Positions 7,445-26,226 of a stretch of 32,000 bases of DNA are shown here, in pieces (within the stretch, counting starts at the first letter, position 1; each line of letters begins with the position of its first letter). The stretch spans positions 1 through 32,000 of the forward strand of contig CAZPUN010000064.1 of NCBI GenBank assembly GCA_964589775.1. The letters run 5' to 3'. This DNA is from an uncultured archaeon (GTDB lineage Archaea > Asgardarchaeota > Thorarchaeia > Thorarchaeales > CAZPUN01). The translations under genes were made by a program, and so were the position numbers. Below the pieces are notes generated by a model that searched no databases, was not told where the DNA came from, and saw only the letters and a list, made by a program, of their open reading frames with translations.

Positions 7445-7458
7445 GAGATCCCTCTTAC

Positions 7459-7716
7459 TAAACACTATGCAAGAATGTATCGCTTTTAAAAGCGACGTTG
7501 AATCGCAATAAGAATCCATAAGTGCATGCATACAAAAATCAACTAATTTGAGAATTTATAGGGTGCGACTTGAATGTATGTGTCGCATCCAAAAACGTCT
7601 TCGGAAAAACTTGAGTATGTTGTATCTTCGTTGGGATACGGCGAGTTGCGAGAAATGGCTACCGCGAGGTAATCCATACGCAAAATCATCGTATTTCAAT
7701 ACGGAAAGTATATCAG
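7459..7716 (+). mobile_element. non-autonomous IS200/IS605-family miniature element, copy 1 (left end + omegaRNA-like scaffold + right end)
   Basis: Preceded by TTAC (7455-7458); left-end hairpin TGCAAGAATGTATCGCTTTTAAAAGCGACGTTGAATCGCA (7468-7507); right-end hairpin CGTATTTCAATACG, then AGTATATCAG (ends 7716); homologous to 25951-26143. Confidence 0.75.
7627..7716 (+). ncRNA. putative TnpB omegaRNA/reRNA-like scaffold, copy 1
   Basis: Stems TTCGTTG/CGGCGAG and TTGCG..ATGG..TACC-GCGA-GGTA..CCAT..CGCAA (GNRA loop), plus a terminal hairpin; covaries with the copy at 26051-26143. Confidence 0.6.
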
Positions 7717-8435
7717 TAAATATTTTTATCCAGCTGGGCTAGTACGTCTGGAAAGTTTTTGATACTTTCGATAACAAAATCTGCACCAGCAGCTTCAAGA
7801 TCTTTCTTACTTGATACTCCAGTTAGCACGCCAACTGTTGTGCAGCCAGCTCTTTTTCCAGAAATGATATCAACGTCCATATCGCCTATGACCACTGTAT
7901 TTTCAGGTTTCGATTCTAATTGTTTGATTACAAAAAGAATTGGGTCTGGATATGGTTTTGATTTAATTTTCAGTTTTGCGAGCTTGTCTGCGGTGAGTAT
8001 AATATCAAAGGCATCGTATATTCCAAATCTTTTTAGTCGTTTTGTGGTTCCCTTAATCTTAGCATAAGTGACGATTCCTTGTTTGTATTTCTCATGTAAA
8101 TTTCTTACAATTTCAATTGCGCCTTCTATTGTTTGAATCGTTCCTTCACGCTTTACGTATTCCTGCTTCATTGCTCTAATGAATTTTAATCTGTTAATTC
8201 GTGATAGTCCCAGGTTCTTTCCAACGTTCCATAAGAATTTAATCCAACCATATTTGCTTGGATTCGCAAAAACCTTTCTTCCTTCACTTATGATGGCTTG
8301 TTCATATGCACTAAAATCAGTTTCATTGGGTTTAACGATGTTGAATTTTCTAAGAAGAGATTTGAAAACCTCCCGAAGGAGGCTCATTGAATCTACAATT
8401 GTACCATCTAAATCATAAATTATGGCTTTGATCAA
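7713..8435 (-). CDS. HAD-superfamily phosphatase (phosphoglycolate phosphatase-like)
   Basis: Motif I YDLDGT, motif III KPYPD, motif IV IGDMDVD...GKRAG. Confidence 0.92.
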   Translation of the reverse strand: MIKAIIYDLDGTIVDSMSLLREVFKSLLRKFNIVKPNETDFSAYEQAIISEGRKVFANPSKYGWIKFLWNVGKNLGLSRINRLKFIRAMKQEYVKREGTIQTIEGAIEIVRNLHEKYKQGIVTYAKIKGTTKRLKRFGIYDAFDIILTADKLAKLKIKSKPYPDPILFVIKQLESKPENTVVIGDMDVDIISGKRAGCTTVGVLTGVSSKKDLEAAGADFVIESIKNFPDVLAQLDKNIY

Positions 8436-25627: not shown

Positions 25628-25950
25628 TCTTTTTCGCCAATATCTGTCATTATGAAGGATAAATTAAAATGTAATGCATTCTGAGTGGGTCAACAATTGT
25701 TATTAATTGACTATTATATAGTTTATGGTAATAAAGAAAAGAAAGATGTCATAAACTACCATATTTCATTCGACTTTAATATATAAAATACTTAGCACCA
25801 TGATTCTGTGTTGAAGTAATTTAGTGTATTAATATCAAATATGTAATGGTTGCGTTTGTTTTGTTTTTTCTAATGAGGTCGATGTCAACTTAATATGGAA
25901 CGCATAATCACCTTAAAAAATAGAAAAGAATTTTGAATTTAAGAAATTAC

Positions 25951-26143
25951 AAACTCTTTGCGAGAAATCATTGCTTTTCAAATGGTGATGAATCGCAGAA
26001 AAGGTTATTAATGACTATTCATAGGATAAATAATTGGAGCGTATTGTTTTCTCGCTGGAGCACAGCGAGTATATGCCCGAAATGGCTATCGTAAGATAAC
26101 GCTTAAGCAGAATCCTCGTATTTCAATGCGGGGTGTGTATCAG
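25951..26143 (+). mobile_element. non-autonomous IS200/IS605-family miniature element, copy 2
   Basis: Preceded by TTAC (25947-25950; boundary +/-1); left-end hairpin TGCGAGAAATCATTGCTTTTCAAATGGTGATGAATCGCA (25959-25997); right end GAATCCTCGTATTTCAATGCGGGGTGTGTATCAG; homologous to 7459-7716. Confidence 0.78.
26051..26143 (+). ncRNA. putative TnpB omegaRNA/reRNA-like scaffold, copy 2
   Basis: Stems CTCGCTG/CAGCGAG, TATC-GTAA-GATA (GNRA loop) and CCTCGTATT/AATGCGGGG. Confidence 0.62.
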
Positions 26144-26146
26144 AAA

Positions 26147-26226
26147 GATACGCCAAGTATATGTATGAATGGCTATTGCTATGTACCCTATGGAACCCGC
26201 ACATTTAAATGTGGGTAGTATGTTTG
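26147..26226 (+). repeat. third, partial and degenerate scaffold/right-end copy in tandem
   Basis: GATACGCCAAGTATATGTATGAATGGCTA aligns with both copies; ends in the hairpin GAACCCGCACATTTAAATGTGGGT followed by AGTATGTTTG. Confidence 0.55.

Follow-up and report, generated by a model that had tools for sequence, protein, structure and literature searches.

The window, which here means the whole 32,000-nucleotide stretch of archaeal DNA that was analysed, contains two intergenic stretches, copy 1 and copy 2, made of the same parts in the same order. The first lies at the end of a HAD-family hydrolase gene. Their features, and a third, truncated piece beside copy 2, are as follows.

7455 to 7458, forward strand: TTAC, target and left cleavage tetranucleotide of copy 1, in the flank and outside the element; present at the sister empty site (L150)
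7459 to 7716, forward strand: copy 1, a long-type, ORF-less mini-element (PATE) of 258 nt (nhmmer 8e-52 against the family HMM)
7474-7477, forward strand: left guide position of copy 1, AATG against consensus AAAG, located by aligning the left end with those of full-length elements
7480-7495, forward strand: left subterminal hairpin of copy 1, a perfect 16-nt palindrome
7545 to 7609, forward strand: middle module of copy 1, confined to copies of the long type; what is left, in diverged form, of the tnpB region that codes for the zinc finger and RuvC-III
7610 to 7716, forward strand: 3′ scaffold module of copy 1, a five-helix block homologous to the 3′ end of tnpB together with the right end (omegaRNA-coding region)
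7683-7686, forward strand: right guide position of copy 1, AAAT against consensus GAAC
7689-7704, forward strand: right hairpin of copy 1
7713-7716, forward strand: TCAG end of copy 1
7713 to 8435, reverse strand: HAD-family hydrolase gene, from the ORF list; stop codon 7713-7715
25947 to 25950, forward strand: TTAC left flank of copy 2
25951 to 26143, forward strand: copy 2, a short-type mini-element of 193 nt (nhmmer matches to HMM positions 1-72 and 135-248)
25965-25968, forward strand: left guide of copy 2, AAAT
25969-25987, forward strand: left hairpin of copy 2
26035-26143, forward strand: scaffold of copy 2
26110-26113, forward strand: right guide of copy 2, GAAT
26114-26133, forward strand: right hairpin of copy 2
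26140-26143, forward strand: TCAG end of copy 2
26147 to 26222, forward strand: an extra, 5′-truncated right-end fragment (nhmmer, HMM positions 170-250, E 1.4e-8)

The first-pass annotation had described an ordered set of blocks shared by the two regions, and block-by-block alignment confirms it: TTAC, a left block of ~48 nt, a variable middle, a structured block of ~110 nt, a subterminal hairpin and TCAG. The lengths it gave, 258 and 193 nt, hold when counted from after TTAC through the end of TCAG. The 3′ halves of the copies match each other in searches within the genome (BLAST E 4e-8, nhmmer E 3e-9), well above what chance would give. In copy 1, whose nearest paralogue (at C48:827) is 80.5% identical, a single additional T separates TTAC from the first base of the consensus. 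Neither copy contains an ORF of at least 80 aa, the window has no tRNAs, and Rfam gave no match over the window at the gathering threshold. (Sub-threshold Rfam matches at E up to 10, to HgcC with 11 bits and to UnaL2 with 16 bits, were treated as chance.)

BLAST or nhmmer with either copy gives dozens of matches in the 2.16-Mb, 64-contig Asgard genome, and iterated nhmmer gives 50, at ~46 loci, 35 of them full length. Family-wide, similarity begins right after TTAC and ends at TCAG; the flanks of different copies are 33% identical, which is background, while inside the elements the median identity is 60% and the highest 86.6%. The search for further copies with unrelated flanks, by which the first-pass annotation proposed to be judged, thus came out in its favour. 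Elements are 193–277 nt long and fall into a long class of ~265 nt, to which copy 1 belongs, and a short class of ~200–225 nt, to which copy 2 belongs; the middle module occurs in the long ones and not in the short ones.

All copies are intergenic, as would be expected if the host kept them, as domesticated genes for structured RNAs or as cis-regulatory leaders, for a function unrelated to transposition. Against such a function, the copies lie in every orientation with respect to their neighbours and often, as copy 1 does, between convergent genes, and BLAST of 40 genomes of the same order found no copy of the minis. A cis-regulatory leader or riboswitch was rejected on the random orientation. 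Two other kinds of repeat were also set aside: a classical MITE, the ends not being mutual inverted repeats and the empty site described below having no target duplication, and a REP element, the assembly having no Y1 family gene (no RAYT). Scans of sequence collections with exact patterns were insensitive, recovering merely 9–13 of the genome's own ~46 copies, and four of the five pattern matches in genome contigs were chance.

The arrangement of the ends is clear from the family consensus. On the left, the foot of the hairpin is 18 nt 3′ of TTAC and has a guide, AAAG, immediately on its 5′ side; on the right, a GAAC guide stands 5′ of the foot of the right hairpin and TCAG ends 10 nt 3′ of that foot. 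The consensus hairpins, of 9 bp on the left and 8 bp on the right, are conserved with compensatory changes, and their G-U pairs fix the strand. TTAC occupies the left-flank position in 18 of 36 copies. Guides and sites match in the consensus, as they do in the full-length relatives introduced below, with AAAG for TTAC, GAAC for TCAG and, in the relative L100, AAAA for TTAT, so that guide and site covary, as the IS608 rule predicts, between L100 (TTAT/AAAA) and the rest of the family (TTAC/AAAG). The pairs TCAG with GAAC and TTAT with AAAA are natural examples of the guide/cleavage-site pairing rule. Both copies in the window depart from it, copy 1 having AATG on the left and AAAT on the right, and copy 2 AAAT and GAAT. 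All four motifs (TTAC, AAAG, GAAC and TCAG) are intact in 2 of 36 full-length copies, neither of them in the window, though some apparent losses in this audit are one-column alignment shifts.

The geometry of the family is that of IS608 (ISHp608 of Helicobacter pylori; He et al. 2011, PMC3201880). The two share the TTAC target and left cleavage site, the AAAG guide, a distance of 18–19 nt from TTAC to the hairpin foot, a right cleavage tetranucleotide ending 10 nt 3′ of the hairpin foot and the lack of target duplication. They differ in the right site and guide, which are TCAG/GAAC in the Asgard family and TCAA/GAAT in IS608, the guide again changing with its site, and beyond these motifs there is no sequence similarity between them.

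Relatives that carry genes were found in other assemblies. A degenerate pattern derived from the alignment picked out L081, a contig of a vent Thermoplasmata MAG, and several metagenome contigs, two of which are 99.8% identical to this genome. In L081 and in L089 the family's 3′ module directly follows a frameshifted, internally deleted tnpB; of these two only L089 spans both ends, its left end being preceded by TTAC. Searching with the TnpB-remnant protein led to many intact TnpBs of 400–410 aa. The family HMM matches both ends of L089, L097, L100, L102, L153 and L154, and the relatives with an intact tnpB differ in gene content: L100, L102, L153 and L154 carry tnpA and tnpB; in L097/L098, matched at both ends, tnpB is accompanied by a small ribbon-helix-helix (RHH) ORF; and L099, matched at the right end alone, has a 47-aa ORF plus tnpB. 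In L100 the tnpA product matches Y1_Tnp (7.6e-38) and the 402-aa tnpB product has PF12323, PF01385 and PF07282; this TnpB also gives a full-length match to that of ISDra2 (8bf8; E 1.9e-35), with the RuvC motifs present. (An intact tnpA plus tnpB element in the Thermoplasmata MAG, L087, is no relative of the family; it is of another IS605 lineage, whose 3′ RNA region is not the same.)

The gene content of the relatives has some features of its own. The predicted TnpAs (L100:1101-1520, L102:1115-1495, L153:815-1195 and L154:2108-2494) have H-I/V-Y, or Y-V-Y and P-V-N, at the position taken by the HUH motif (H-I-H) in 2ec2 and 2f4f, the solved Sulfolobus homologues, so that the tnpA of the parent clade, unlike that of IS608, has H-U-Y at the HUH motif. 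Three of these four are shorter and are without the aligned C-terminal R-Y-I tyrosine helix. In members with tnpB only, tnpA is replaced by an RHH ORF of 47–51 aa (DUF7557 / VapB-antitoxin-like) that overlaps the start of tnpB:

L097:1368-1523: RHH ORF
L099:1380-1523: RHH ORF
L089:4170-4310, reverse strand: RHH ORF

Two metagenome contigs (L091:2406-2527 and L092:884-968) have solo right-end modules of ~85 nt beside a gene for a polytopic membrane protein, and a spurious ORF of 63–82 aa reads through them.

What the minis retain of such elements is evident from the protein comparisons. HMM positions 74-165 align to the 3′ coding region of tnpB in L081, L089, L097, L099, L100 and L102. When 30 related TnpBs were compared with this genome by tblastn, they matched it through residues ~354–418, and exclusively inside minis; TnpB C-termini give 4 matches in the region of copy 2, and residues 357–406 are matched in other long copies. 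Since the TnpBs match the genome by their C-terminal part and within the minis, the latter are internal-deletion derivatives, consisting of the left end and the last 110–185 nt of the parent. The first-pass annotation had called them ORF-less IS200/IS605 derivatives, and this stands, both their ends being homologous to those of elements with tnpA (Y1_Tnp) and tnpB, and copy 1 having an empty counterpart in a sister species. The middle module of long-type copies, 7545-7609 in copy 1, has two nested stems. The homologous zinc-finger/RuvC-III stretch of TnpB in full-length elements is not self-complementary, so the stems may post-date the deletion.

OmegaRNA is encoded at the 3′ end of the element, where it overlaps the 3′ coding region of tnpB. 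Here, the tnpB ORF of L097, L100 and L102 crosses the five-helix block and ends ~13–40 nt from TCAG. The 3′ scaffold is therefore a putative omegaRNA, assigned by position and homology, and the proposal that the right end is an omegaRNA-like region is upheld by the matching of the last ~50 residues of TnpB inside the minis. Its helices, five with 32 pairs, were drawn by hand from one full-length member, and the pairs were then counted in 48 sequences: 77.7% of cells are standard pairs, as against 34–45% in slid controls, and the covariation score is 0.284 as against 0.10–0.16, with 0 of 500 shuffles reaching 0.284. There are double changes at 26 of the 32 pairs, and abundant G-U pairs fix the strand. 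(RNAalifold, run on the noisy 48-sequence alignment, predicted just 4 pairs.) Full-length relatives keep 31–32 of the pairs and the genome's own copies 15–30, copy 1 keeping 26 and copy 2 keeping 28.

Strand-specific helices with compensatory changes are also what domesticated RNA genes would be expected to show, as is a TATA-like box which, judged from the sequences, has been kept inside the copies from the left end. However, the covariation is already there among the tnpB-bearing parents, and so was possibly inherited, and erosion is markedly greater in the genome's own copies than in those parents. A further point against a host function comes from the sister species, where the orthologous site is without copy 1, and taken with the random orientation and the result from same-order genomes it makes domestication of the family extremely improbable.

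The sister assembly, GCA_053994715.1, has a HAD orthologue that is 78% identical, on a contig that keeps synteny with the window for 5.6 kb (~77% DNA identity). At its counterpart of the copy 1 site, RadA and HAD are convergent and 21 nt apart, and TTAC directly abuts the counterpart of the right flank of copy 1, without duplication. This, together with the conserved hairpins, bears out what had been claimed of subterminal hairpins and of insertion 3′ of TTAC with no duplicated target. (As excision of IS200/IS605 elements is seamless, the empty site could instead reflect excision in the sister.) The same assembly contains L100, a tnpA plus tnpB element of 1,742 bp (L100:1009-2750) with target TTAT and left guide AAAA. 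Its flanks are syntenic with contig C21 of the genome studied here (81% and 75% identity), where the site (C21:63740/63753) is empty, and comparison of the two places the right junction exactly at TCAG. Because of the empty site for copy 1 and the L100 element opposite an empty site in this genome, the family, on this comparative reading, has moved since the two species split and the lineage contains a predicted tnpA/tnpB locus with these ends. At the other copy the comparison is less informative: on the sister contig that carries the neighbour gene of copy 2 (L152), synteny breaks off where that gene begins and nothing in the 520 nt upstream matches the family, so that this is not a clean empty site.

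The findings that the first-pass annotation had named as telling against it all turned out the other way, homology stopping at TTAC and TCAG, Rfam being without a match, copies being many and a tnpA/tnpB locus existing in the lineage. On that last point the expectation of a locus with the same ends was borne out for the sister species, by L100, and failed for the present assembly.

Three observations on the HAD gene belong here. On the minus strand (7713-7718) its last codon spans the junction, and its stop codon is supplied by the TCAG end of copy 1. The product is 240 aa long here and 236 aa in the sister, where the gene ends on its own TAA; were copy 1 removed, the TTAC flank would help to form a TAG, and the gene would end there, a codon sooner. 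No HAD orthologue was found in 30 genomes of the same order.

The family is not confined to Asgard archaea. The TnpB remnant from Thermoplasmata is about 81% identical to the TnpB of the sister Asgard species, whereas no TnpB from 86 other genomes of the order exceeds 35% identity to this clade. The IS608-type family is thus common to vent Thermoplasmata and an Asgard lineage, and this disparity points to its horizontal transfer between archaea of vents.

Neither TnpA nor TnpB was found in the genome in which the minis abound. Its assembly, of 64 contigs and 96.75% completeness, has no match to TnpA (PF01797, Y1_Tnp) and none above threshold to TnpB (PF07282, PF01385), and the N-terminal or RuvC part of TnpB is absent by tblastn at E up to 10, contig ends included. 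(Weak tblastn matches outside the minis, to HypA, Yip1/zinc-ribbon and TackOD1 proteins, are to unrelated zinc ribbons.) As the assembly is a MAG, a tnpA/tnpB element present in repeated copies may have escaped assembly or binning. Since it is without TnpA and TnpB and the copies have drifted, the copies in this genome are best read as stranded, decaying and immobile fossils. Two proposals of the first-pass annotation accordingly find no support in this genome. Against mobilisation in trans by a TnpA at the present day stand the lack of any Y1_Tnp over threshold, the age and erosion of the copies and the mutated left guides of those in the window; a role as guide-RNA genes for a TnpB, or for a domesticated derivative, encoded in this genome finds no PF07282 or PF01385 protein above threshold to serve.

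The minis might nonetheless still be active, or be working guide-RNA genes in trans, or both, if served by a TnpA and TnpB that are unassembled or incoming. In the sister, tnpA and tnpB ORFs of full length, bounded by these ends, sit in syntenic chromosomal DNA; the assembly studied here is a draft, and PATEs often encode omegaRNAs that need TnpB in trans (Meers et al., PMC10055086); moreover, two copies retain all four motifs and a few retain 28–30 of the 32 scaffold pairs. However, with a maximum identity between pairs of 86.6%, recent transposition is not indicated, most copies have eroded helices, and tblastn at E up to 10 shows nothing of the N-terminal or RuvC portions of TnpB. In IS608, mutation of the left guide (GL) abolishes formation of the transpososome complex (PMC3201880), and it is the left guides that are mutated in both copies of the window. 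Continuing activity is on balance very unlikely.

Both stretches are, with high probability, protein-free deletion derivatives (PATEs) of an IS608-like IS200/IS605 element and are now immobile fossils. The parent carries tnpA, for the Y1 transposase, and tnpB, for the RNA-guided nuclease. Internal deletion joined its left end of ~75 nt, with the hairpin, the AAAG guide and the TATA-like box, to its last 110–185 nt. The 3′ part so kept is the tail of tnpB, doubling as the omegaRNA scaffold, followed by the right end with its hairpin, GAAC as guide and TCAG as cleavage site. Elements of this type travel as single-stranded circles: TnpA acting in trans recognises both hairpins, locates the cleavage sites through their pairing with the guide tetranucleotides and inserts the element 3′ of TTAC without target duplication. 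Up to this point the reading is shown by homology, by the geometry of the ends and by an empty site. In the active family the scaffold and ~16–20 nt of right flank would probably have given an omegaRNA usable by TnpB in trans. Such effects as the copies still have, for instance the stop codon of the HAD gene, would be incidental. There is a small chance that some of the better-kept copies are transcribed from the TATA-like box as orphan omegaRNA-like RNAs, which TnpB could load whenever a related autonomous element, such as that of the sister species, returned to the population, or that single copies now serve the host as a promoter, a terminator or the end of a gene.

Elements of this kind are already known, and the family is a further member of the PATEs. 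Those of Haloquadratum walsbyi have no inverted repeats, near-terminal palindromes and no target duplication, are core deletions of IS605-type elements and in some cases keep C-terminal coding remnants (PMC3119063). The Asgard copies resemble its heterogeneous PATEs and HqIRS71 (Dyall-Smith et al. 2011, PMC3119063) in being short, heterogeneous, without a transposase and with palindromes near the termini. They differ in host, which is not haloarchaeal, and in sequence family; no SMR-A (small mobile repeats) were seen inserted in them, and neither tnpA nor tnpB was found in the assembly. The PATE-like elements of ISGst in Geobacillus stearothermophilus (Meers et al. 2023, PMC10055086) are likewise protein-free, have ends common to the tnpB-bearing IS and keep the omegaRNA region, and the prediction for them is that both TnpA and TnpB must be supplied in trans. 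In Geobacillus, tnpA and many tnpB are in the same genome and omegaRNA expression has been measured, whereas in the Asgard genome the proteins are absent from the assembly and the copies have decayed.

The current understanding of such elements is unchanged by these results. What is explained is a set of ~46 hairpin-rich intergenic repeats in an Asgard genome, each of which might, without this explanation, pass for a riboswitch, a small-RNA gene or a regulatory leader. For biochemistry, the sister species offers a ready candidate in its intact TnpB, for which the scaffold is well defined and the adjacent motif is TTAC.

The extra right-end fragment at 26147-26222 starts 3 nt past the TCAG of copy 2, and a comparable extra piece follows the copy at G000:C21:44448-44483. 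Such fragments may have originated by nested insertion, by alternative use of a right end or by recombination.
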